Below are positions 3,905 through 63,671 of a stretch of DNA of 64,000 bases, one piece after another. Under the pieces are notes generated by a model, which was given only the letters and a program-made list of their open reading frames with translations, searched no databases and was not told the DNA's origin. The stretch is from contig JAWAHN010000001.1 of assembly GCA_038889235.1 (NCBI GenBank), positions 631,459-695,458 on the forward strand. Direction: 5' to 3'. This DNA is from Candidatus Jordarchaeales archaeon (GTDB taxonomy: Archaea; Asgardarchaeota; Jordiarchaeia; Jordiarchaeales; Freyrarchaeaceae). A program made the translations under genes and the position numbers. Positions within the stretch are counted from its first letter, which is position 1. Every line of letters starts with the position of its first letter.

Positions 3905-4705
3905 TCACCCCCCGGGTATTTTTTCTCTAAACATTGCTGCCCTGTTAGCTATCAAAGCCGCGATTACGCCTGCTCCAACCCCGTTGTCAATGTTAACAAC
4001 GGCGACTCCGGGAGCGCATGTTTGAAGCATCGTGAAAAGGGCGCCAACGCCGCCTCCTCCAAACCCGTACCCCGTGCTTGTTGGAACACCTATTACCGGA
4101 AGGTTCACGAGTCCTGAAACTACGGAGGGGAGCGCGCCCTCCATTCCAGCGACAACAACTATTACATCTACCCCGTTTCTGACCATGTCGGCAAGCGGCT
4201 TAAATACTCTGTGAATTCCTGCGACCCCAACGTCATAGGCGACGTAAACTTCGCACCCCATACATCTTGCAGTTAGCCTGACTTCTTCGGCTACAGGTAT
4301 GTCTGCTGTACCTCCGGTTAGGACACCTACCTTTCCGCCGGTCTTAGTCAGTTTGTAATCCGGCCTCCTGACGTAAATAGTTCCAGTTTCTTCTATCACT
4401 TCTAGCGAAAACATGCTCTCCGGAAACTCTTTTCTTAACAAGGACAACTGTTCCTCGTTGCACTTGGTTACAATAACGTAACCTTTCTCTTCAACAACTC
4501 TTCTAGCGATCTCAACAAGGTACTCTTTTCGCTTACCTTTAGCATAAACAATTTCCGGCGTACTCGAGCGGAGCTCCCTCTTCACGTCTATCTTGGCGAT
4601 ATTACCAACTTCCAGTATTTGAAAGAAACGAATTGCCCTTTCAGCTTCATCTAAGCTAATTTCGCCTTTAACTAGCTTCTCGAGGATCTCCCTTAACTGG
4701 CTTAT
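3905..4705 (-). CDS. larB: LarB-family PurE-like protein (nickel-pincer cofactor biosynthesis carboxylase/hydrolase)
   Basis: PurE-like core GGKVGVLTGGTADIPVAEEV...VIVVVAGMEGALPSVVSG preceded by a LarB-type N-terminal region (SQLREILEKLVKGEISLDEAERAI). ORF track begins at 4855, but that extension would swallow the divergent promoter; a GGAGGGAG motif is followed 6 nt later by in-frame ATA (4705-4703), giving 266 aa. Start is uncertain. Confidence 0.65.
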   Translation of the reverse strand: MSQLREILEKLVKGEISLDEAERAIRFFQILEVGNIAKIDVKRELRSSTPEIVYAKGKRKEYLVEIARRVVEEKGYVIVTKCNEEQLSLLRKEFPESMFSLEVIEETGTIYVRRPDYKLTKTGGKVGVLTGGTADIPVAEEVRLTARCMGCEVYVAYDVGVAGIHRVFKPLADMVRNGVDVIVVVAGMEGALPSVVSGLVNLPVIGVPTSTGYGFGGGGVGALFTMLQTCAPGVAVVNIDNGVGAGVIAALIANRAAMFREKIPGG

Positions 4706-4740
4706 AGCACTCTCCCTCCGGCCGGGCAGGACGTGATGGC

Positions 4741-4750
4741 TATTTAAATA
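4741..4750. promoter_or_regulatory. Palindromic TATA-like element (TATTTAAATA) in the divergent larB/queC intergenic region
   Basis: TTTAAATA matches the archaeal TATA consensus on both strands; lies between the inferred starts of the divergent genes. Confidence 0.35.
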
Positions 4751-4797
4751 TCTCAACGATAATACCTTAAAAGTGTAGTGCGCTGGAGGGGAATAAT

Positions 4798-5544
4798 ATA
4801 CAGGCAAAGATCGGAGTAGTCCTTTTAAGTGGAGGGTTAGATTCGACGGTAACATTGTGGTGGGCTAAGGAAAAAGAAAGATATAGTGAGATACATACTT
4901 TAACGTTCCTTTACGGTTCCAGGGAAGAAAAAGTCGTGAAAAAGGTTTGTGAAAGGCTGTCTTCTCTTTCCGGGGCCAAGAAACAAGTCTTCCTAGAGTT
5001 ACCTTGGCTCAAAGAGTTCTCCGCTAAAGCTGGAACAGCTTTGATAGAAGGAGGTAACCTGCCACCTAAATTAACTATTCAAATGCTTGATGATAAAAGT
5101 GCTGTGAGAGAGACGTCTAGGAGTGTTTGGGTTCCGGCGAGAAACCTTTGCTTTATAGCTATAGCTGCGGCGTATGCAGAGACGTTAGGTGGTGAGATCG
5201 AAATAATTACAGGCTTTAATAAAGAGGAGGCTGAAACATTCCCCGACAACTCTCTTACCTTCACTGAAAGAGCGAACGCGTTACTTGAAACGTCAACTCT
5301 CAAAGCTAGGGTCTCCTTAAAAACTCCTATTATACATCTCAACAAGAAGGAGATATGCGTGTTAGCAAAGTCGCTCAATGTCCCCGTTGAGTACACAAAC
5401 TCCTGCTACAACCCAATCGGCATAACTGAGGACGGGAAACCCATTCATTGCGGCGTTTGTGAGAGCTGCACGAGGAGGAGACGTGCTTTCTTGGAAGCCA
5501 TAGGTTCAGACCCTACTATTTACGCTTACAATCAAACGACTTAA
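4798..5544 (+). CDS. queC: 7-cyano-7-deazaguanine synthase QueC (PP-loop ATPase)
   Basis: C-terminal zinc motif HCGVCESCTRRRRAF typical of QueC; the PP-loop SGGLDS (KIGVVLLSGGLDSTVT) is in frame upstream of the track start (TTG 4855) with no ATG/GTG/TTG before it; GGAGG at 4785-4789 followed by in-frame ATA at 4798. Start is inferred. Confidence 0.7.
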   Translation: MQAKIGVVLLSGGLDSTVTLWWAKEKERYSEIHTLTFLYGSREEKVVKKVCERLSSLSGAKKQVFLELPWLKEFSAKAGTALIEGGNLPPKLTIQMLDDKSAVRETSRSVWVPARNLCFIAIAAAYAETLGGEIEIITGFNKEEAETFPDNSLTFTERANALLETSTLKARVSLKTPIIHLNKKEICVLAKSLNVPVEYTNSCYNPIGITEDGKPIHCGVCESCTRRRRAFLEAIGSDPTIYAYNQTT

Positions 5545-52718: not shown

Positions 52719-53297
52719 TTGACAGGGACTAAGATATGTAGCGTTTTGTTTGAAACACCAGGCCCTGCGAACACGGATGAAACATTGAAAATAGCTAAAG
52801 AATTTGCGGATAACAATCAAGTGAAGGATATAGTTATTGCTTCTACTACAGGGAATACTGCTCTCAAGGCGCTTAGATTGTTTTCTCCGGACAAGTTTAA
52901 CTTGGTGGTGGTTACTCATAGTTACGGTTTTGTAAAACCAGGAGAGCAAGAGTTTGATAGTGAAGTTAGAGCGGAGCTTGAAAAGAAAGGTGTTAAGGTT
53001 TTGACGTGCGTGCACGCTCTTTCTGGGGTTGAAAGAGCATTTAGGAACAAACTTGGCGTCTGGATGCCGATCGACCTAATTGCTAGAACACTTAGATCCA
53101 TACTGGGCGACGGATTTAAGGTTTGCGTGGAGATTGCTCTCATGGCTGCCGATGCAGGACTTATTCCAATAGATAGGGACGTAATCGCAATAGGAGGGAC
53201 AGGGCGGGGGGCGGATACTGCAGTGGTTCTTAGGCCTTCAAACACGTCCAACTTCTTAGATTTACGTGTCAAGGCCATTCTTTGTAAGCCCATCTGA
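52719..53297 (+). CDS. Conserved hypothetical protein (alpha/beta fold)
   Basis: 192 aa; no confident family assignment. Confidence 0.45.
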   Translation: MTGTKICSVLFETPGPANTDETLKIAKEFADNNQVKDIVIASTTGNTALKALRLFSPDKFNLVVVTHSYGFVKPGEQEFDSEVRAELEKKGVKVLTCVHALSGVERAFRNKLGVWMPIDLIARTLRSILGDGFKVCVEIALMAADAGLIPIDRDVIAIGGTGRGADTAVVLRPSNTSNFLDLRVKAILCKPI

Positions 53298-54113
53298 TAA
53301 ATACTTTTTTAGCGGTCTTTTGCACGAGGGACACTTATCTTTTTGTTTAAAGTAATCGTTTAAATGCTTTTCACATGCCTTATTAAAACAAAAGGGACAT
53401 GTGAAATGCTTAGAGTCTGGCGGCAGTTTATCTCCGCACACCATGCATTTTTCTTCTTCAACCTCACTGCGCAATGCCCTTTCTATCCATTCAAACTCTT
53501 CTGGTGAGCCGATTTCGTACACGCCGTTCTCTATTAACATGTCTCTAACGTAAATTCTGTACTCTTGAGGTGCGTCTTCAGAAACCAAGAGAAGTTTCTT
53601 TGCTTCTTCAAGAAGAGAGATCCCATTCAATCTTGACGAAACCATTTTCCACACATATCTTAAGATCAATGGATTCCTTACGAGGGAACCATAGAGAAAA
53701 TTCGCGCACTCGTAGCTTCGCCCCTCGTTAAAATAGTAGTCTACGGCTTCCTTAAAGAGGCCAACTCTGAGCAGTTGTAGAACCGGGTGACCGACCCCTT
53801 CTTTTTCGTATTTGTCTAAGAGTTTTTCGGCCTGCCTCGTTCTAATGACAGAGTAGAGGGCGCAGGATAACGTGCATAAAAGGAAAAATATGCTTAATGT
53901 TGGAAAAACTGTAGGGTATTGTGTTGGGGCCACGTTTAAACTAATTAGCAACATATTGTAAGCCAACCACGCGAAAAAAGATTCGTAAGTATTACGAGTG
54001 AAGTATAGATAGATATCTATCGCACAATAAGCTGCAATGCTAAAAGACAACAAGAGGAGAATTGAAAGTCTGCGCTTCAACTTGGACTTAGCGAGTTCCG
54101 TCAAAACAATCAC
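53262..54113 (-). CDS. Membrane protein with C-terminal zinc-ribbon domain
   Basis: 283 aa; N-terminal transmembrane helices, C-terminal CMVCGDKLPPDSKHFTCPFCFNKACEKH...CPSCKRP. Confidence 0.5.
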   Translation of the reverse strand: MIVLTELAKSKLKRRLSILLLLSFSIAAYCAIDIYLYFTRNTYESFFAWLAYNMLLISLNVAPTQYPTVFPTLSIFFLLCTLSCALYSVIRTRQAEKLLDKYEKEGVGHPVLQLLRVGLFKEAVDYYFNEGRSYECANFLYGSLVRNPLILRYVWKMVSSRLNGISLLEEAKKLLLVSEDAPQEYRIYVRDMLIENGVYEIGSPEEFEWIERALRSEVEEEKCMVCGDKLPPDSKHFTCPFCFNKACEKHLNDYFKQKDKCPSCKRPLKKYLSDGLTKNGLDT

Positions 54114-54244: not shown

Positions 54245-55819
54245 ATGGAACTTTTAACTAAGACCCAGGGGGCACCTATTGTGAAAGTGAAAACACCGCA
54301 TGCAGAACTGGAAAAAGTTGACGATAAACCAATAAGAAGCTACGATGAAATAAACGAGAAAATAAAGCGGGGGGACGTCATAGTAGTTACAGCAGAAGAG
54401 ATGGTTAAAATAGTTGAGGAAGAGGGAGTAGCTAAGGCTGCTAAGGAAATAGATGTGGTTACAACGGGAACCTTTGGACCGATGTGCTCGAGTGGGGCAT
54501 TCTTGAATTTCGGTCATGCGGATCCGCCGATAAAAATGGAAAGGGTGTGGATTAACGATGTTGAAGCGTATCATGGAGGAGCAGCCGTGGACTGCTATAT
54601 AGGCGCCACAAAGATGAGCCAAACCAACCCATTTAAGTATGGTGGAGGACACGTAATAGAGGATTTAGTGGCAGGTAAGGAGGTAGAAGTTAGGGCTATA
54701 GCGTACGGCACTGATTGTTACCCCAGGACGCGTATAGAAACCACTGTAACTATAGAAGATCTTAACCAGGCTATTCTTTGTAATCCTAGAAACGCGTATC
54801 AAAGGTATAATGCTGCAACGAACGGACGCGATGAAGTAATATACACATATATGGGGAAATTGCTCCCCAATTATGGAAACGTTACTTTTTCTGGGTCAGG
54901 TTGCCTTAACCCGCTTTGCAACGATCCCGACTATGAAACTATAGGTATTGGTACGCGCATATTTTTGGGGGGTGGAATAGGTTACATTATAGGGGAGGGA
55001 ACTCAGCATAATCCACGCGAGCAATTTGGGACCTTGATGGTTAAGGGAGATCTTAAAAAGATGAGTCCTAGGTATTTGAGGGGGGCGGCTTTCACGAAGT
55101 ATGGTACAACAATGTTTGTCGGGGTCGGTGTTCCCATACCTATTCTGAATCAACGCTTAGCATTGAAAACGGCTGTAAGTGATGACGAGATAACAACTAA
55201 GATCCTCGATTACGGTGTTCCAAGACTTCAGAGACCTGTCATCAGAGAGGTGACATACAGCGAGTTGAAATCTGGGAGAGTGGAACTTAATGGTGAAACC
55301 GTTAAAGTTTCTCCTCTTTCGAGCATAAGCATGGCGCGTGAAATAGCTGAAACCCTCAAGAAGTGGATAGAAAACGGGGAATTCTTCCTTTCAGCTCCTG
55401 TGGAAAGACTGCCTCGAGATACTGTCTTTAAGCCTATGAAAATGACTAAGGAAGTAAAGTACGTTAAGTCTTTTATGAGGCCGGCTGTCACGTGTAGAAG
55501 CAGTAATTCCATAGAAGATGTGGCAAAGATCATAGTTTCTAGGAGCGTCAACCACGTAGTAGTTGTAGACGAGGAGGGCAAATTGGAGGGGATAGTGACG
55601 TCTTTCGACATAACTAGAGCGGTTGCTGAGAAGAAAACAAATCTAGCGGAGATAATAACTAGGAAAGTTATCTCAATAAGTCCCGAGGAACCCATAGAGG
55701 TGGCATCTAGGAAAATGAAGGAGCATGACATTTCGGCACTTCCAGTCATAGATGAGCGGAAGAAGGTGCTTGGCATAATTACTAGTGAAGACTTGTCTAA
55801 GCTGATCGGTGGGGAGTGA
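54245..55819 (+). CDS. Homocysteine biosynthesis protein (DUF39 domain + tandem CBS; L-aspartate-semialdehyde sulfurtransferase family)
   Basis: 524 aa; DUF39-type N-terminal domain with conserved Cys, followed by two CBS domains; partnered with downstream NIL-ferredoxin. Confidence 0.7.
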   Translation: MELLTKTQGAPIVKVKTPHAELEKVDDKPIRSYDEINEKIKRGDVIVVTAEEMVKIVEEEGVAKAAKEIDVVTTGTFGPMCSSGAFLNFGHADPPIKMERVWINDVEAYHGGAAVDCYIGATKMSQTNPFKYGGGHVIEDLVAGKEVEVRAIAYGTDCYPRTRIETTVTIEDLNQAILCNPRNAYQRYNAATNGRDEVIYTYMGKLLPNYGNVTFSGSGCLNPLCNDPDYETIGIGTRIFLGGGIGYIIGEGTQHNPREQFGTLMVKGDLKKMSPRYLRGAAFTKYGTTMFVGVGVPIPILNQRLALKTAVSDDEITTKILDYGVPRLQRPVIREVTYSELKSGRVELNGETVKVSPLSSISMAREIAETLKKWIENGEFFLSAPVERLPRDTVFKPMKMTKEVKYVKSFMRPAVTCRSSNSIEDVAKIIVSRSVNHVVVVDEEGKLEGIVTSFDITRAVAEKKTNLAEIITRKVISISPEEPIEVASRKMKEHDISALPVIDERKKVLGIITSEDLSKLIGGE

Positions 55820-56213
55820 AAAAGTGAAAATGCGAGTTAGGTTTAGCACGGACAAGATTAAGGAAGCGGTTACAGCAGATGTAATCCTGGAAACAGGGGT
55901 GCGTATAAATATACTCAGCGCTATGCTTAACGAGCGAGGGGGAGAAGTGCTGCTTGAAGTGCCAGATGATAAGGCGAAAGAAGTGCAGGATGCTTTCAAA
56001 CGGCATGGTGTGGATGTTGAAGAAGACAGGAAACGCGTGGAAATTCTTAAGGATCGTTGCGTAAATTGCGGTTCATGTTACTCCCTCTGCCCCGTTGACG
56101 CCATACGACTTGACCCGAAAACCTTCGAAATAGACCTAATCAAAGAACTGTGCATTGGATGCATGAGGTGCATCGACGCATGTCCGCTTGAAGCAATAGT
56201 TAGAGTCAAATAG
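55809..56213 (+). CDS. NIL-domain 4Fe-4S ferredoxin (sulfurtransferase partner)
   Basis: 134 aa; N-terminal NIL-like domain and C-terminal CVNCGSCYSLCP...CIGCMRCIDACP; overlaps upstream gene by 11 bp. Confidence 0.7.
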   Translation: MGSEKVKMRVRFSTDKIKEAVTADVILETGVRINILSAMLNERGGEVLLEVPDDKAKEVQDAFKRHGVDVEEDRKRVEILKDRCVNCGSCYSLCPVDAIRLDPKTFEIDLIKELCIGCMRCIDACPLEAIVRVK

Positions 56214-56404: not shown

Positions 56405-57436
56405 ATGGACGTAAGTAGGTACTTGTCTCTAAAAAGGGTTACCCTGTTTTTCAATGGAGGAGCCTTAATGGAGTACGAGGGGCAAATTCCAGTTAAGGAC
56501 GAGGATACATTGTACATGATGGCTGTTGACTTGAACATTGCTGAACAAGTTTTTTCAACTTTGAATGTAAGCGACCTCGACGGAGGAGCTGTAACTGAAA
56601 TAGTGTACCAGCTCCCTGCTGAGTTGTCTTGCAGTTATGACGTTAAATTTGACAACTTCATGCGGAGCTTACTCCCCAAACTCGTAGGGAGAACCATCAG
56701 CTTAGGAGTAAAAAGTGGAGAGAACATTTCAGGGATCCTTCTGGGCTTTGACGAAACAAAAAATGGCGGCAACGATGAAGTTTTCCTCGATGTTCTCTCA
56801 TCGGACAAGCTTTACAGAGTCAACATGGCGTCAGTAGAACATATTTCTTTGGGAAAAAACTGCTCTCTTGAGTTAAAAAACCTTGCTAAAGGGGAATTGA
56901 AGGCTTACGTCGGTTGGAGAATAGACCCGGGGACTGTAGTAAAAGAAAAACATTTGGTTAATGTAAAACATTTTCAGTCGCTGGGTGAGAAATGGAGACC
57001 CTTTTATCATCTTTATGTTTCAGATGAGATGTGGGTTTTGATAGTGTGGTGCGAAATCACAAACCCAACGTCAAAGGATTGGAAAGACGTGTCGATTACA
57101 CTTACAACCGGAGCAATGCTACTGCTAGGATCTTGTGAACTGCGAAGTGATGAAGTTGCCGAGTACAATATCACTGGACCAGTTACTATTCCCAAGTTTT
57201 CGAGAGTTCTCATCCCTGTCTCTAAATTTGAAGTTAAAGGCGAAGTACAGTTGCAAACAGGTGATTCAGAGAAAAATGTGGTGAAGGTGAGTATAATAAA
57301 CGACAGCGGTAAAGTGTGGCTTCCAGGAAAAATTATAGTGTGGAGAGAGGGACGGCTCCTTGGAATTGGTGAATTACAGTTTGTCAAGAAAGGCGGAGTT
57401 GCGGTGGTTGAGGTAAGCGTGAAGACAAGTAATTGA
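56405..57436 (+). CDS. Hypothetical beta-rich protein (343 aa)
   Basis: Long ORF upstream of the giant coiled-coil operon; no family recognised. Confidence 0.5.
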   Translation: MDVSRYLSLKRVTLFFNGGALMEYEGQIPVKDEDTLYMMAVDLNIAEQVFSTLNVSDLDGGAVTEIVYQLPAELSCSYDVKFDNFMRSLLPKLVGRTISLGVKSGENISGILLGFDETKNGGNDEVFLDVLSSDKLYRVNMASVEHISLGKNCSLELKNLAKGELKAYVGWRIDPGTVVKEKHLVNVKHFQSLGEKWRPFYHLYVSDEMWVLIVWCEITNPTSKDWKDVSITLTTGAMLLLGSCELRSDEVAEYNITGPVTIPKFSRVLIPVSKFEVKGEVQLQTGDSEKNVVKVSIINDSGKVWLPGKIIVWREGRLLGIGELQFVKKGGVAVVEVSVKTSN

Positions 57437-57570
57437 AAACATTTAAAAAAATAAAAAGAATTTTGTATTTTTAACATTTTAAAAATTAAGAAAAGTTTAT
57501 TTTTCTACAGATTTTAACATTTCTTGCCCGGTTAACTAGGATTGTTTTGCTGTTAATGGAGTGAGCAGTA
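57437..57570. promoter_or_regulatory. AT-rich intergenic region with three AACATTT copies, upstream of the 57571-62829 operon
   Basis: AACATTT at 57438, 57473 and 57516; exact 11-mer TTTTAACATTT at 57469-57479 and 57512-57522. Confidence 0.3.
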
Positions 57571-58455
57571 ATGAAAGGTAGGTATGTAAAATACGCAAAC
57601 AAGGTTTTAGAGGTGTTCTGCAATGGAAAAGACGCATTGATATTTGCTCCCCTACTGAAGTTACTTGTGGAGCACATGGAAGAAGTATGTGAAATGTGCA
57701 TGGAAAACAAAATGGTCTGCACACTGCGGCCTATGTGTCCTGAAAGAAGATGGCTTAGCTTTCTCATAATGATAGGAGCACAAAAAGAGGATCTTCCAGC
57801 TTTTTGTTTCAAAACCAGGATTAATGAAGTTAAAGCGATAATAGAGAGGACTAGCCATATTCATTTCAGCGATGCCATACTTCAAATAGACGTTTTTCTC
57901 AATATTCTTTCTGGCGGAAGGTCACGCTTAATAGAGCCTTTCAGAAGCGGTGATCTTGAAAGGTTTATTGAGGGGCTTGAGGCAGAGTTTAAACGCCACA
58001 CAAAAAACATTTCGTTGCTTGTTAATGATAGATGTATCTTCATCTTGGTGGACGAAAACCTAGTAATGATGTATTTGGATAAAGGGTTTGTCTTGATAAA
58101 TCCTGAGGAGAAAGTGTTTGATTCCGCAGAAGAATTAGTTAATTTAGTGCTTGCTTTTAAAAATCATTATGATGTACCAATTCAAGTGGAGGAAGAATTT
58201 GCCGGGTTCCCTCGAATTACGGTAAGAATTCCTCATAAACCTTATGTAGAAGATTTAGTGAACAAATTCGTTGAAAAAATGGTTAAAAACGCCGGACACG
58301 TAAATTTCTTCCCTGAAAATGATAGCTTAATGTTAGAGGTAGAATTTGACTTAGTCAATTCCCCTCTTAAGTTTAGGAAGGTTCTTCACGTATTAAACGA
58401 TATTAAATCACTCTACCAGGAAGTGATTGGTAAAGGCGAGGGGGGTAAGACTTGA
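57571..58455 (+). CDS. Hypothetical Cys-rich protein (294 aa)
   Basis: N-terminal CEMCMENKMVCTLRPMCPE cluster; stop overlaps start of the giant coiled-coil gene by 4 bp. Confidence 0.5.
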   Translation: MKGRYVKYANKVLEVFCNGKDALIFAPLLKLLVEHMEEVCEMCMENKMVCTLRPMCPERRWLSFLIMIGAQKEDLPAFCFKTRINEVKAIIERTSHIHFSDAILQIDVFLNILSGGRSRLIEPFRSGDLERFIEGLEAEFKRHTKNISLLVNDRCIFILVDENLVMMYLDKGFVLINPEEKVFDSAEELVNLVLAFKNHYDVPIQVEEEFAGFPRITVRIPHKPYVEDLVNKFVEKMVKNAGHVNFFPENDSLMLEVEFDLVNSPLKFRKVLHVLNDIKSLYQEVIGKGEGGKT

Positions 58456-61400
58456 CCGAGAAGGTTGTGTCACTTATTGCTAGTAGGCTTGGACTTAAAG
58501 ATAATGAAGCCAGGGTCTATGAAATACTTCTTTCTTATAGGGTTCTTACAGCAGGAGAGATATCGTACTACACGTCTTTTCCAATATCCGAAGTTAATGC
58601 AATTCTCCACTCTCTCATAAACAAGGGGTTAGTTATTCGTATACCGGGAGTTGTCGAAAAATACATGCTCATTACTCCTTTTAAGGTGTTTTTCGAGACT
58701 GCTGGTGAGACTTCGAAAGTTGCTAGAGGAGTAGAGGAGAGACTGGAGAAGTACTCGGAAGTTATTAAAACAGACTTGGGAAGCTTCATTGAAAGTTTTA
58801 AGTCCAAACTAGAAAGTTTTGTGAGCAGAGAAACGCAGAATATAAAAAGTAAAGCCGGTGAGACTAGTGCTCTCTTGGAAGCGCTGACTACACAAGAAAA
58901 GGCGAAATTGGGTGACGCAGCAAAAGACGTAGATTCTTGCTTCGAAGTAGAGTTAGAAACACATAGAAAACTTAGTGAAGATTTATTGGCCAACTTTAGA
59001 GGTGAAGTAGAAAAGAAAATAGAAGATTCCTTAAAAAAAGTAGAGGGCTCTGTCAAACAGAGCGCGGTAAAAGCGTTGAGCGCCTTTACATCCACTATGG
59101 GTGACTTGAGCGCTCAGTTAGGGAGTTTTGAAAAGAAGATATTAAACGAGATTACCGTGATATCGAAGGAAGTTGACTCGCTTCCGGAAAAAATTGCTGA
59201 AAAAATAACTGATGCCAAGAAAGAGTTCGATACTAAAGTAAGAAACGTTTTAGAGAGTTCCAAAGAGCAAACTTCGAGTGTTGTAAACGCGTTAAAAAAT
59301 GAGATTAACGAGCATGTGAAGGCTGTGGAAAGGCTTACGTTTGAAAGCATTAGAAGGGACGCCTTAAAGTTGAGGGAGCATGTTGAAAAAATAGGACGAG
59401 AGCTAGAGACGTTTATAAATGATTCGACGTCAAATACCGCGAAAAGCGTTTCATCCATTTACACGGCGGTTTCAAAACCTCTTCGATCCTTAAAGGTAGA
59501 GTATGAAAGAGAGATGCAAAAAATTTTAGAACAGATGGGTAGACTCACGGATAGCAGCGTTCGCCGTTTTTCTTCGATTATTGATGAAACGAAAACTAAA
59601 GTGGCTGAGCAGATTAAGTCATACGTTGAACTCCAAAAGGATGTTTTAGACGAATTTAAGTCAAAAATAGATGGACATATATTATCCAGTATTAAAGAGT
59701 TCAGTACGGCTTCTTCTTCGATAAAGGAGCGTTTCAAAGAAGTTGTAATGGAGGAGAAAAGTACTACAAGTAAAGTTTTTGAGTGGACAAGAGAGGTGGT
59801 TAAGTCACTTATTCTGGAGCACACTGACGTGGTAAAGAGCACTTTAAGGGAGATTGAAAAGAAACTTCACGACGCATTGATCATGGAAAGTGAAAGTGAG
59901 GAAAAAGATTACTCCAAATTCAAAGACACATTCTCTTCCATGCTGGAAGTTTCTAAGCGAGAAATACTGGAAGTAGCAAAAGTAACGTCTAGAAGCGTGC
60001 TCAGAGAGATACATACTCAGACGGATGTAATTATAAGTGAACTGAGAAAGTTAAGGGAGAAAGTTTTCGAAAATATTAAGGAAGAATTGAGGAAAATCAA
60101 GTGGGAGGCTGAGGAGGCAAGGAGGAGCGTTGAAAGGCTTCTATCTCAACGTGTCGCATACATGGAGGAACAAGCTGAGCTCATGAGGCAACGATTAGAC
60201 GAAACAATCAAAAAGAAGCTCGAGGAGATAAACTCCAATTTTGGAGTTATAAGGGCAGGATTTCTTGAAGTGATGGACGGAATATTGGCTAGGTTTGCCG
60301 AAATTGTGGAAGAAACCAAGAACAGTTTTTCGCTATCAATTAATTCTCAATTCTCTTTCTTTAAGGAGAGCCTCGAGAAACTTGACCTAGCGCTCACAGA
60401 AGAACTGAAACAGCAAGTGGAAGCCGCCAAAGCGGAGGCCAACGAGTTTCTCTTAAGTTTTTCGAAAGAGTTGGAGGGAAGAATCCTAAAGGTGGAGGAG
60501 CTCACGAAGCAAATCATCGATAACATAGAGGGCACATTTAAAAAGCAGGAGAAGATTAGTAGGAACCTTAGAAACACAGTTTCGTCTTACTTTGTCCAAG
60601 AGTTGAGACGATACATAGATGCGTTCTCTAATACTACCCTACTGCTTAACGAGCGTTTGACTTCGCTCTTAGATGCGAGAATAAAAACCCTGGAAAGACT
60701 TAGAAGCAGGCTCGAAAAGGAAATTTCATCTTTAATTGCTAGCAAAGAGGAGCTAATAGAGGAGAAAAATGCCAGTTTAAGAGACACAGTGGATGCGCAC
60801 ATTTCGGAGAGATACAAAGAGTATACAGAGTTGCTGGAAAACACTATTAGGGAAATTGAAAAGATGCTTTACGAGCATGTAGAGCGATTCAAAGGTCACA
60901 TGGAGGAGGTTTCAAGGAAGCTGGCAGAAACCGTCAGGGAAACTCTGGGAAAGATATCTAAGATTTCCGATAGTAGCACAAGGGAGTTGGCGGCTTTGCT
61001 GAGCGTTGAACAAGAAACCGTTGTTAACGAAACGAAAAATTTGATTGAGGAAGCAAATAAGACATTTGAACAATATGTTAGAGCTCTGAGAAATAGCATT
61101 GCAACTTGTCTAGATAATTTAGTGGAAGAAGTGGCGAAACAGATAGAGAGCCTGAAAGATAAAAGGGATTATCTTGCGACAGCATTGAAAGGCAGTATGA
61201 TAGCGAGTATTGAACAATTTGAAACTACACTTAAAGAATTAGAGAGCGATTTAACTTTAGGCATGGAAGGTGAATTAAAGAAAGTTGATTCATTGACTGC
61301 ACAGCTAGAAGTAAGGTTGCAATCTTTGCTTGATAAGCTGAAAAGTGACGGATGGGCATATTCGGATTACTTACTAGAAGAAAGCGCAAATATACTTAAG

Positions 61401-62378
61401 AGAAGCGCTGAAAGTGTGAGAACTATTCTGGAGTCTGCAAGTCGAAAAATTACTGAAATCATAGTGGAAGACAAAAAGGTTTTGGGTTCGAAGACTGATG
61501 AAGCAAGAAACTTGATTGAAGGAATAACGAAGGAGACAATAGAAGAAATTGAGAGCGCGGCGCGTAGAATACATGACGAGATAACTATTCTCGTAAGTAG
61601 GTATCGTGAAGAGACGGAAAAAATTATGCATGAAACCAGGAAGCGCATAGTTAGTGAGTTTAAAAGATGCGTTGAAAAACAAGAGAAGGACGTTGAGGAT
61701 GTTAGCCGCAACATAACGGAAATGCTTGCCCAGTTAGTGGAGAGCTACGAAAAAATGCTGAAGGAGTTCAGCAACGATTTGTCGGTTCATGTAAGCGAGT
61801 TCTACAAGAGAGTGGTTGAGAACGTAAGAGGAACAACGGATACTCTATGTGAAAGCATCAGAAAGTTGCTAGAGGAGTTAAAGTATACTGAGGAAATTAT
61901 GCAACTAACGTGGAGCGAAGTAACAAAAGCGCCTTTGGCTTTAGAAAAAACCTCGTTCGTAGTGACACGAGAAGCGGCGCGCGTACGAGTAAAGGACATG
62001 GTGGCACGGGCTAAAAAGTCACTAGTAGTTGTGGCTCCTAACCTGGAGGAGCTCCCGGTGCAGGAAATACTAGAATTGAAGCCTTCGGTAAGAGTATATC
62101 TGTTTACAGATTTCGAATTACCAAGGCAAATTGACACGTTGAGGAGTTTGGTGAGTAAAAGTGGTGTGCGTTTGTGGAGAAGAGAAGAAAAGGAATTTTT
62201 CATATGTCTGCGAGACGATGAAGAAATGTTTATCGCTCCAGTGTCAAAAGAGGAGCCTTTAGTAGCTGTGGTGAGTGAAGAACAAAGTTACATCGAAGCG
62301 TATAAACGTTCACTGCTACCTCTCATTAGGTCAACGTCCAAAGAAGTGAGATTGGAAGATATACAGAGCGCCAAGTGA
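58452..62378 (+). CDS. Giant coiled-coil protein with N-terminal TrmB-like winged helix and TrmB-like C-terminal domain
   Basis: 1308 aa single ORF; N-terminal RVYEILLSYRVLTAGEISYYTSFPISEVNAILHSLINKGLV (wHTH), roughly 1000 aa of low-complexity E/K/L-rich heptad sequence, C-terminal globular domain (SLVVVAPNLEELPVQEILELKPSVRVYLFTD). Confidence 0.6.
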   Translation: MTEKVVSLIASRLGLKDNEARVYEILLSYRVLTAGEISYYTSFPISEVNAILHSLINKGLVIRIPGVVEKYMLITPFKVFFETAGETSKVARGVEERLEKYSEVIKTDLGSFIESFKSKLESFVSRETQNIKSKAGETSALLEALTTQEKAKLGDAAKDVDSCFEVELETHRKLSEDLLANFRGEVEKKIEDSLKKVEGSVKQSAVKALSAFTSTMGDLSAQLGSFEKKILNEITVISKEVDSLPEKIAEKITDAKKEFDTKVRNVLESSKEQTSSVVNALKNEINEHVKAVERLTFESIRRDALKLREHVEKIGRELETFINDSTSNTAKSVSSIYTAVSKPLRSLKVEYEREMQKILEQMGRLTDSSVRRFSSIIDETKTKVAEQIKSYVELQKDVLDEFKSKIDGHILSSIKEFSTASSSIKERFKEVVMEEKSTTSKVFEWTREVVKSLILEHTDVVKSTLREIEKKLHDALIMESESEEKDYSKFKDTFSSMLEVSKREILEVAKVTSRSVLREIHTQTDVIISELRKLREKVFENIKEELRKIKWEAEEARRSVERLLSQRVAYMEEQAELMRQRLDETIKKKLEEINSNFGVIRAGFLEVMDGILARFAEIVEETKNSFSLSINSQFSFFKESLEKLDLALTEELKQQVEAAKAEANEFLLSFSKELEGRILKVEELTKQIIDNIEGTFKKQEKISRNLRNTVSSYFVQELRRYIDAFSNTTLLLNERLTSLLDARIKTLERLRSRLEKEISSLIASKEELIEEKNASLRDTVDAHISERYKEYTELLENTIREIEKMLYEHVERFKGHMEEVSRKLAETVRETLGKISKISDSSTRELAALLSVEQETVVNETKNLIEEANKTFEQYVRALRNSIATCLDNLVEEVAKQIESLKDKRDYLATALKGSMIASIEQFETTLKELESDLTLGMEGELKKVDSLTAQLEVRLQSLLDKLKSDGWAYSDYLLEESANILKRSAESVRTILESASRKITEIIVEDKKVLGSKTDEARNLIEGITKETIEEIESAARRIHDEITILVSRYREETEKIMHETRKRIVSEFKRCVEKQEKDVEDVSRNITEMLAQLVESYEKMLKEFSNDLSVHVSEFYKRVVENVRGTTDTLCESIRKLLEELKYTEEIMQLTWSEVTKAPLALEKTSFVVTREAARVRVKDMVARAKKSLVVVAPNLEELPVQEILELKPSVRVYLFTDFELPRQIDTLRSLVSKSGVRLWRREEKEFFICLRDDEEMFIAPVSKEEPLVAVVSEEQSYIEAYKRSLLPLIRSTSKEVRLEDIQSAK

Positions 62379-62481
62379 GTAAGAGTGGATATTTCGTTCA
62401 TCATACTCGGCCTTATAAGATGCAATGCTTCTAGAGATGAAACGAAGTAAAAGGGCAGAAAAGAGAGCTAGGTAGATCTCA

Positions 62482-62829
62482 ATGATAAAGTGGGAGACTC
62501 CAAGTGATGAAGAGGCACTAAGAGAGGTCGAGACGCTTAAGAAGTTCGTGAAAGGTGACTATGTGAAAATAGCAATACTAGAGCAGCTTATCAAGGGTGG
62601 TTGGTGTACTTTAAGCGAGTTGTGTAGAGCGGCGAAGGTGTACGATAGGTATGTTGGACAGGTAAGGGTAGCAACCATTTTGCAATACCTAGAAAGCATA
62701 ACTAGGGGGCTTCTAGAGAGGGATGAAGGAGATTTTTGCGTGAGGTGGAGGATTAAGCCTGAAAGGAAAAAGATAATTGAAAAATGGATTGAAGAAATCA
62801 AATCCGCACCTTACCGTAAAAGCTTCTGA
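62482..62829 (+). CDS. Small winged-helix DNA-binding protein
   Basis: 115 aa; KIAILEQLIKGGWCTLSELCRAAKVYDRYVGQVRVATILQYLES wHTH-like segment. Confidence 0.45.
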   Translation: MIKWETPSDEEALREVETLKKFVKGDYVKIAILEQLIKGGWCTLSELCRAAKVYDRYVGQVRVATILQYLESITRGLLERDEGDFCVRWRIKPERKKIIEKWIEEIKSAPYRKSF

Positions 62830-63580: not shown

Positions 63581-63671
63581 TGGTGGGCGGGCCAGGATTT
63601 GAACCTGGGACCTCCACGGTGTCAACTTCGCCCTTTCTGTGTGGCGTCATAACCAGCTAGACTACCCGCCC
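63581..63671 (-). tRNA. tRNA-Val (anticodon GAC), one intron, CCA encoded
   Basis: Minus strand: acceptor GGGCGGG/CCCGCCC, disc A, CCA; T-arm CCAGG-TTCAAAT-CCTGG; anticodon stem CCAC[14-nt insert]G / CGTGG with loop TTGACAC. Confidence 0.65.

Follow-up and report, generated by a model that had tools for sequence, protein, structure and literature searches.

Genes B and C of a Candidatus Jordarchaeales archaeon form a conserved pair in which C encodes a very long helical protein capped at both ends by TrmB-type domains. The pair lies in a window of 64,000 nucleotides, by which we mean the whole stretch of contig JAWAHN010000001.1 that was analyzed (positions 631,459 to 695,458); Jordarchaeales are an Asgard lineage also named Freyarchaeia. 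Gene B (57571..58455, + strand) encodes 294 amino acids, and gene C (58452-62378, + strand), which begins with a TTG codon, encodes 1308. By the sequence of one end and the predicted fold of the other, C belongs to the TrmB superfamily. It is not a sugar-sensing TrmB, a structural maintenance of chromosomes (SMC)-like protein, a canonical coiled coil, an apolipoprotein or a ZorA. We tentatively read C, at somewhat less than an even chance, as an Asgard-specific elongated relative of TrmBL2 that serves as a fixed-length, DNA-anchored strut organizing the nucleoid, with B as its partner.

The N-terminal head of C (residues 1-90; 58452..58721) is a TrmB-type extended winged helix-turn-helix (wHTH) domain. 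The Pfam TrmB profile PF01978 matches residues 12-75 above its gathering score (E-value of 1.5e-13; 50.9 bits against a cut-off of 25.6), in agreement with the original prediction for this locus, which had placed a TrmB-type winged helix here. When the first 123 residues are compared with sequences in the PDB, the best match is TrmBL2 (5bpd; E 7.5e-6, residues 3-87 against 4-88), and the second is TrmB (3qph; E 7e-4). The NCBIfam equivalog for TrmBL2, NF041141, is matched over residues 3-83 only, with 28.5 bits against a cut-off of 530. Given this score and a length of 1308 amino acids, C is not a TrmBL2 ortholog.

The C-terminal domain (residues ~1146-1308; 61887..62378) is recognizable by its predicted fold. 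Its last 168 residues have no direct Pfam or PDB sequence match, and PDB searches with the single sequence and with a 21-sequence profile return nothing significant, with weak matches to TFB2-C and FAM83 at noise level. An AlphaFold2 model built from 21 family sequences has a mean predicted local distance difference test (pLDDT) of 88.1, and a Foldseek search with this model returns TrmBL2 first (5bpd; E 8.6e-9), followed by TrmB (3qph and 2f5t; to E 1.5e-7) and later by Nuc, Zucchini, FAM83 and F13, all of the phospholipase D (PLD) fold. The TrmB-like globular domain that had been proposed for this end is thus supported at the level of fold, and TrmBL2 is the closest relative of the two termini by sequence and by fold, respectively. 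PF11495 is matched by 9 of the 21 aligned family C-terminal domains (best E 2.9e-5), with scores at or near the cut-off in a second comparison, and C of the window itself has no PF11495 match. The family matches span profile positions ~2-136 of 233, where the protein ends, and the structural alignment with 2f5t likewise covers 139 of 233 residues. Because the match stops at the first half of the profile and the fold is closest to that of TrmBL2, the domain is predicted to be a PLD-like domain of the TrmBL2 type that lacks the sugar-binding subdomain. An HKD motif is absent, and the conserved residues spell R..W...RDxEE.LIAP.

The domain order wHTH, dimerization helix and C-terminal domain is that of TrmB and TrmBL2 (PMC4877046). 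TrmBL2, a highly abundant protein that binds DNA non-specifically, assembles as a tetramer; it covers DNA with stiff filaments and does not cross-bridge it (PMC4877046). C shares with TrmBL2, a chromatin protein of Thermococcales (PDB 5box, 5bpd, 5bpi and 5bqt), this homologous order and the absence of a sugar-binding subdomain. Despite this common plan, TrmBL2 has ~264 residues, of which a few tens make up its helix, whereas the helix of C runs for ~1,050 residues in hendecad register; the end domains are only about 14-25% identical; and C, unlike TrmBL2, has a dedicated partner gene with a cysteine motif and an Asgard-only range. With TrmB and TrmBL1 (PDB 3qph and 2f5t), C has in common the PF01978 head and the PLD-like first half of the PF11495 region, but the sugar-binding subdomain (PF11495 positions ~135-233) is absent from C, and its helix is more than 30 times longer.

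The rod between the two ends (residues ~91-1140; 58722..61871) is an unbroken amphipathic helix with a hendecad repeat. Over residues 96-1140, hydrophobic periodicity has a power of 28.9 at 11/3, compared with 0.19 +/- 0.20 in 2000 shuffles (z = 146), and harmonics appear at 2.2, 4.4, 11 and 22 residues. At a period of 3.5, the power is 0.10 (z = -0.5), which is noise, and sliding windows agree. The long helical region of the original prediction stands, as a periodic amphipathic helix of ~1,050 residues, while its description as heptad-rich coil gives way to a hendecad. Averaged over four species in windows of 44 residues, the phase never leaves the range 1.8-2.3 (of 3.67) between residue 81 and about residue 1130, and this constancy means that ~95 hendecads follow one another in a single register without a stutter. 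Positions a, e and h make up the core (hydrophobic occupancy of 0.84, 0.74 and 0.48), d (0.42) and i (0.36) contribute, and the other positions carry E, K, S and R. The occupancy at a, e and h points to a buried seam and away from a lone charged helix. A reading of the rod as an E/K-rich single alpha-helix was considered and ruled out, as position a is 84% and position e 74% hydrophobic. Correlation is stronger at even than at odd multiples of 11, indicating a 22-residue superperiod; when a super-repeat of 176 residues was tested for, the in-phase lags with the highest rank were 176 and 352, with a z of only about 2. The rod is net acidic (-27 to -43). Its sequence pattern is that expected of straight or right-handed helical bundles.

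Among known proteins, the rod resembles the ZorA tail, a pentameric coiled coil that projects about 70 nm and whose core leucines are spaced 4-4-3 (PMC11946911). The first 56 residues of that tail are resolved, the rest is modeled as a continuation with a right-handed twist, and the length of the tail is considered important for its function (PMC11946911). Whether scaled from the ZorA tail or calculated with 0.148 nm for each residue, the length of a straight rod of C would be ~145-155 nm, about twice that of its ZorA counterpart. Profiles of ZorA tails in PADLOC match the rod at up to E 8e-20, and PF01442 (Apolipoprotein) reaches 86 bits against a cut-off of 90; the hendecad pattern of the rod explains both matches. 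The likeness to ZorA is probably a convergence of repeats. To our knowledge, the rod is among the longest uninterrupted hendecad helices, and however mundane its cellular role might prove, it offers a naturally occurring model of very long helical bundles, right-handed or straight. Islands of conservation lie at about residues 320-375, 485-505, 606-670 and 694-730. In the last of these, TFKKQEKISR (60534-60566; C residues ~695-705) is identical in a 44%-identical ortholog and is the only hendecad with a polar mean at a, e and h (hydropathy of -0.6 versus 2.1 overall); the site may act as a hinge or bind a partner.

The length of the rod is conserved to a degree that its sequence is not. Four Jordarchaeales orthologs of C, at 33-45% identity, align over 1307 columns with no internal gap. 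In the same four species, the neighboring gene A (48-66% identity) and gene B (55-65%) are better conserved and yet contain indels. Distances were measured from a proline in the head to a tryptophan or a threonine in the C-terminal domain. A class of proteins of ~1300 amino acids, 13-23% identical to C of the window, occurs in Freyarchaeota, Helarchaeota, Thorarchaeota and Odinarchaeota, and the proline-to-threonine distance is 1089-1092 in the eight lineages of this class that can be anchored (those of Jordarchaeales, Freyarchaeota, Helarchaeota and Thorarchaeota, and four more). Measured by domain boundaries instead, the rod has 1040-1045 residues in 10 of 10 scored members, including the Odinarchaeota protein (1044), in which the anchors cannot be placed. 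That the rod keeps its length to a few residues at sequence identities as low as about 13-23% is the hallmark of a molecular ruler. A gap-free and phase-locked rod further points to one or more partner chains paired with it in register, and to selection that acts on length itself.

C is also intact as a gene. Its TTG start is credible because the N-terminus lines up residue for residue with those of its orthologs in the alignment, and a G-rich stretch lies just 5' of the B/C overlap. Three further species have C proteins of 1307, 1307 and 1310 amino acids, several independent assemblies contain this locus with a C call of 1308, and annotated metagenome-assembled genomes of Candidatus Jordarchaeales include A and B genes that match those of the window exactly or nearly so. 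The possibility of a mis-assembly or a fusion of separate genes, raised together with the original prediction, thus falls away, as C is intact at 1307-1310 amino acids in at least four species and in many independent assemblies.

An exhaustive HMMER search with C residues 109-1308 against 1.84 billion representatives (E <= 1e-3) recovers a family of 131 proteins, essentially all of which carry the C-terminal domain at the C-terminus. The wHTH is also present in 68 of 133 scored family proteins, and many of the others are fragments. Every available source name in the family is Asgard, with Hod-, Baldr-, Sigyn-, Atabey- and Promethearchaeota represented in addition to the phyla named above. Full-length members range from 323 to 1907 amino acids and fall into length classes (about 750, 930, 1000, 1090-1110, 1240, 1300, 1790 and 1907). 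The proline-to-tryptophan distance is fixed within a class, with 709, 749, 863, 1078 and 1539 recurring. Rod lengths that differ by units of 11 across classes are ruled out, since the distances spread over all residues modulo 11. Helarchaeota hold several classes (1110, 1245, 1316 and 1732 amino acids), which suggests paralogs of different fixed lengths; in the window, C has no paralog. Short members (323-390 amino acids) have the same ends and resemble ordinary TrmB-like proteins, so an expanded dimerization helix is the fitting evolutionary picture. This is the expanded linker already proposed from the sequence, now seen as the same two end domains around a helical spacer of very variable length. 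Database labels for the family are limited to 'hypothetical', 'helix-turn-helix domain-containing' and 'TrmB'. Full-text literature searches found no description of the family and no paper on gene C, consistent with the earlier view that it matches no described system. What sets C apart is the rod architecture, its Asgard-wide conservation of length and the dedicated partner B.

Gene B accompanies C in all 14 loci examined, one of them with a divergent orientation. It immediately precedes C on the same strand in loci L001, L008 and L011, in L013 (deep Freyarchaeota), L016 (Helarchaeota) and L017 (Thorarchaeota); in L018, an Odinarchaeota-type contig, the two genes are adjacent and divergent. 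Six loci come from scanning GTDB representative genomes for a pattern, and in all six B is followed immediately by C. The pairing is thus conserved across Asgard phyla. No B is found near C-family members of other length classes (1814, 935 and 1107 amino acids). In the window, the C start and the B stop overlap by 4 nucleotides (TTGA, 58452-58455), as had been described for this pair.

B has no match in Pfam, NCBIfam or PADLOC, or in sequence and profile searches of the PDB. The protein had been called cysteine-rich; stated precisely, it has seven cysteines, of which five are invariant (C40, C43, C50, C56 and C79) and lie within the N-terminal ~100 residues. These five follow the pattern C-x2-C-x6-C-x5-C with a further cysteine ~22 residues on, which recurs in the Jordarchaeales, Freyarchaeota, Helarchaeota, Thorarchaeota and Odinarchaeota copies and suggests a metal site, either zinc or iron-sulfur. 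In the AlphaFold2 model, residues 1-101 have a pLDDT below 50, and residues 102-288, at about 80, form a predicted alpha+beta sandwich region with generic fold matches only.

Taken as a strut, C could work as follows. Firstly, two or more C chains would pair in parallel and in register to form a nearly straight, slightly right-handed bundle of ~150 nm. Parallel pairing would be the simplest extension of the TrmB/TrmBL2 dimer, and it would set the heads ~150 nm from the PLD-like domains. Secondly, the winged helices would lie together at one end and grip DNA like paired TrmBL2 heads, while the PLD-like domains at the far end would dock onto a second bundle, in the manner of the TrmBL2 tetramer, or onto a different partner. 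Finally, a strut of fixed length anchored on DNA could space or bridge chromosomal DNA, or tie DNA to another structure. B, produced from the same transcript as C, would be its stoichiometric partner, possibly in direct contact with it, and would contribute the five-cysteine metal site and the alpha+beta sandwich domain.

Several considerations weigh against this arrangement. DNA bridging by C would be an extrapolation, since TrmBL2 itself does not cross-bridge DNA (PMC4877046). The head of C has a net charge of about 0 to -3 and is therefore not basic, and what is proposed for DNA binding, oligomeric state, orientation and function of C draws on sequence and predicted models. The rod may resemble ZorA tails and apolipoproteins through a common repeat alone. 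It may also fold back or form a multi-helix arrangement, of which the mirror test described below gives no sign, and it lacks the long-range, myosin-like charge periodicity of staggered filament packing. On the side of B, the fold matches are generic, and the cysteine region is modeled at low confidence.

Among the other readings, the most probable, though unlikely, is that C is an ordinary sequence-specific TrmB-type regulator, perhaps autoregulatory, with the long helix as a sensor or scaffold and B as a metal or redox co-regulator. The above-cut-off wHTH, the normal regulator-like appearance of the 323-390-amino-acid members with the same ends, the conserved five-cysteine site in B and the repeats in the promoter-like spacer upstream of B-C are all consistent with regulation. 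For a regulator, however, it is hard to see why a rod of ~1,045 residues would be needed and why its length would stay within 2 residues across phyla; the repeats of the spacer are not conserved in relatives, and the effector (sugar-binding) subdomain of TrmB is absent.

Somewhat less probable is a role for C as an apolipoprotein-like or phasin-like coat on a membrane, lipid body or granule, with the wHTH tying that surface to DNA. There is precedent for such a tie, as bacterial PhaF and PhaM link polyhydroxyalkanoate granules to the nucleoid. Exchangeable apolipoproteins (PF01442) have the 11/22-residue amphipathic periodicity of the rod, K/R residues are enriched at the positions flanking its hydrophobic face, the near-threshold PF01442 score is accompanied by weak ApoLp-III and PhaP matches, and the module adjoins mevalonate and polyprenyl genes in L011 and L013. 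These lipid genes, however, lie on the other strand and are absent from the window. The L/I/V/F seam at a and e is narrow and very hydrophobic, like the core of a bundle, and far more so than in apolipoproteins. In addition, only two prolines occur in the ~1,050 residues of the rod, which therefore lacks the proline punctuation of apolipoproteins, and strict conservation of length and register is unexpected for a surface coat. C further differs from exchangeable apolipoproteins in being cytoplasmic and in having DNA-binding and PLD-like flanks.

Improbable in turn is a self-assembling cytoskeletal filament or an SMC-like arm, in which rods would pack laterally or fold back as in SMC or Rad50. 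Fixed-length, gap-free rods are typical of in-register packing, as in intermediate filament and myosin rods, and the rods of C are gap-free and of exactly conserved length. SMC-like proteins such as coalescin ClsN, arcadin-4 and Rad50 also combine, like C, a very long helix with a plausible link to DNA. C nevertheless has no ATPase head (ABC-type in these proteins), hinge, hook or zinc hook, its repeat is hendecad rather than heptad, and Pfam and NCBIfam give no SMC_N, AAA or hinge match. The rod shows no mid-rod break, no mid-rod globular domain in Pfam and no mirror symmetry: when core hydropathy and volume are correlated about ~110 candidate apices of a fold-back hairpin, the best r is 0.42, which is noise. 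Long-range charge periodicity is likewise missing. The SMC-like architecture of the original prediction is accordingly not upheld, and the chromosome-organizing or cytoskeletal role that it put forward stays a hypothesis. Very improbable, lastly, is an analog of Zorya ZorA, that is, the signal-transmitting tail of a defense or sensing system: ZorA profiles are the best PADLOC matches of C, but only their tail part is matched, there is no MotA/ExbB membrane motor domain and no ZorB, ZorC or ZorD, genes A, B and D have no PADLOC match, and from species to species the locus keeps its place among housekeeping genes (homocysteine synthesis, proteasome), with none of the variability of an island and no defense context.

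The interest of the strut reading lies in where the module occurs. No known prokaryotes are more closely related to eukaryotes than Asgard archaea, and little is known of how their DNA and cell interior are organized. The module, in which a chromatin-protein head sits on a very long hendecad helix, seems to be confined to Asgard archaea and is conserved in at least five of their lineages. A bolder proposal, which we regard as doubtful, is that B-C is an ancient, Asgard-wide device of chromosome architecture, with C as a rigid ~150-nm ruler that would set the spacing between DNA segments or between DNA and the envelope or a scaffold, and with B controlling its assembly. If true, the ruler would be a prokaryotic functional forerunner or analog of the lamina or of synaptonemal-type transverse filaments. 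The strut reading is directly testable, as both genes are expressible in size, rod length can be read by electron microscopy (EM), and homologs occur in lineages with cultured representatives.

All four open reading frames predicted at this locus are present on the + strand at their expected positions, but the conserved unit is the B-C gene pair and not the four genes. Gene A (56405..57436, + strand; 343 amino acids) is a short relative of DUF4139/MuiA-like proteins. The window copy scores 23 bits against a PF13598 (DUF4139) cut-off of 31.8, and orthologs of 462-472 amino acids in L013 and L020, which match an A profile at about 1e-56, exceed this cut-off with 39.9 and 41.4 bits. A lies upstream of B-C in L001, L008, L011, L013 and L019-L023, that is, only in loci labeled Jord-, Frey- and Sigynarchaeota, and is absent from the Helarchaeota, Thorarchaeota and Odinarchaeota loci. 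It is probably transcribed separately.

The spacer between A and B (57437..57570, + strand) has 134 nucleotides at 23% GC in the window and 203-415 nucleotides in relatives. It contains oligo-T runs and a transcription factor B recognition element (BRE)/TATA-like element, AGAAAAGTTTATTTTTCTA (57489-57507, + strand), which aligns in four species amid diverging flanks. The length of the spacer and the conservation of this element argue that B-C has its own promoter, which the spacer bearing AGAAAAGTTTATTTTTCTA probably is. The same features speak against the four-gene operon that had been suggested, as does the replacement of gene D in L011 and L013. The unit had also been described as lying behind an AT-rich repeat region; the 23% GC repeat stretch in fact lies between A and B, and the sequence upstream of the unit has 35% GC. 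The repeat AACATTT occurs three times in the spacer (57438, 57473 and 57516; 35 and 43 nucleotides from start to start), with the first two copies inside a 35-nucleotide direct repeat. It was considered as a set of operator sites and rejected, being not conserved at this position in relatives; the copies may be species-specific or due to chance.

Gene D (62482..62829, + strand; 115 amino acids) has no assigned fold. It has no Pfam, NCBIfam or PDB sequence match, and the winged helix once proposed for it finds no backing in Pfam or PDB sequence searches. D is kept in L001 and L008 only, at 65-72% identity; L016 and L017 have other genes in its place, and in L011 and L013 an unrelated protein of 144-149 amino acids replaces it. 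D is therefore probably not part of the module. The replacing genes after C (L011 13935-14369 and L013 11015-11464) are 40% identical to each other, L013 holds a further paralog, and the L011 protein has a weak longin match (Fuz_longin_1; E 5e-4, below the cut-off). In L017, a 309-amino-acid helical protein is encoded upstream of B (4087-5016); its Dynactin_p22 match, marginally above threshold (26.1 bits against a cut-off of 25.2), is probably coiled-coil noise.

Upstream of gene A, the window encodes HcyBio-CBS (524 amino acids) and a NIL-domain 2x[4Fe-4S] ferredoxin (134 amino acids) in reading frames that overlap by 11 nucleotides (54245-56213, + strand). They represent the methanogen-type pair for sulfur incorporation into homocysteine, which lies directly upstream of the module in all Jordarchaeales relatives and not in the deeper Freyarchaeota locus L013. 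Further upstream, a 283-amino-acid predicted membrane protein with a CxxC-rich C-terminus (53262-54113, - strand) keeps its position in all relatives, and its CxxC region gives only weak zinc-ribbon/RING-like matches (E 0.01-0.09). Downstream of gene D, a proteasome beta subunit gene lies on the opposite strand. An 88-nucleotide tRNA (63584-63671, - strand), missed by ARAGORN, is detected by the Rfam tRNA model with 52 bits and may contain an intron or another non-canonical feature.

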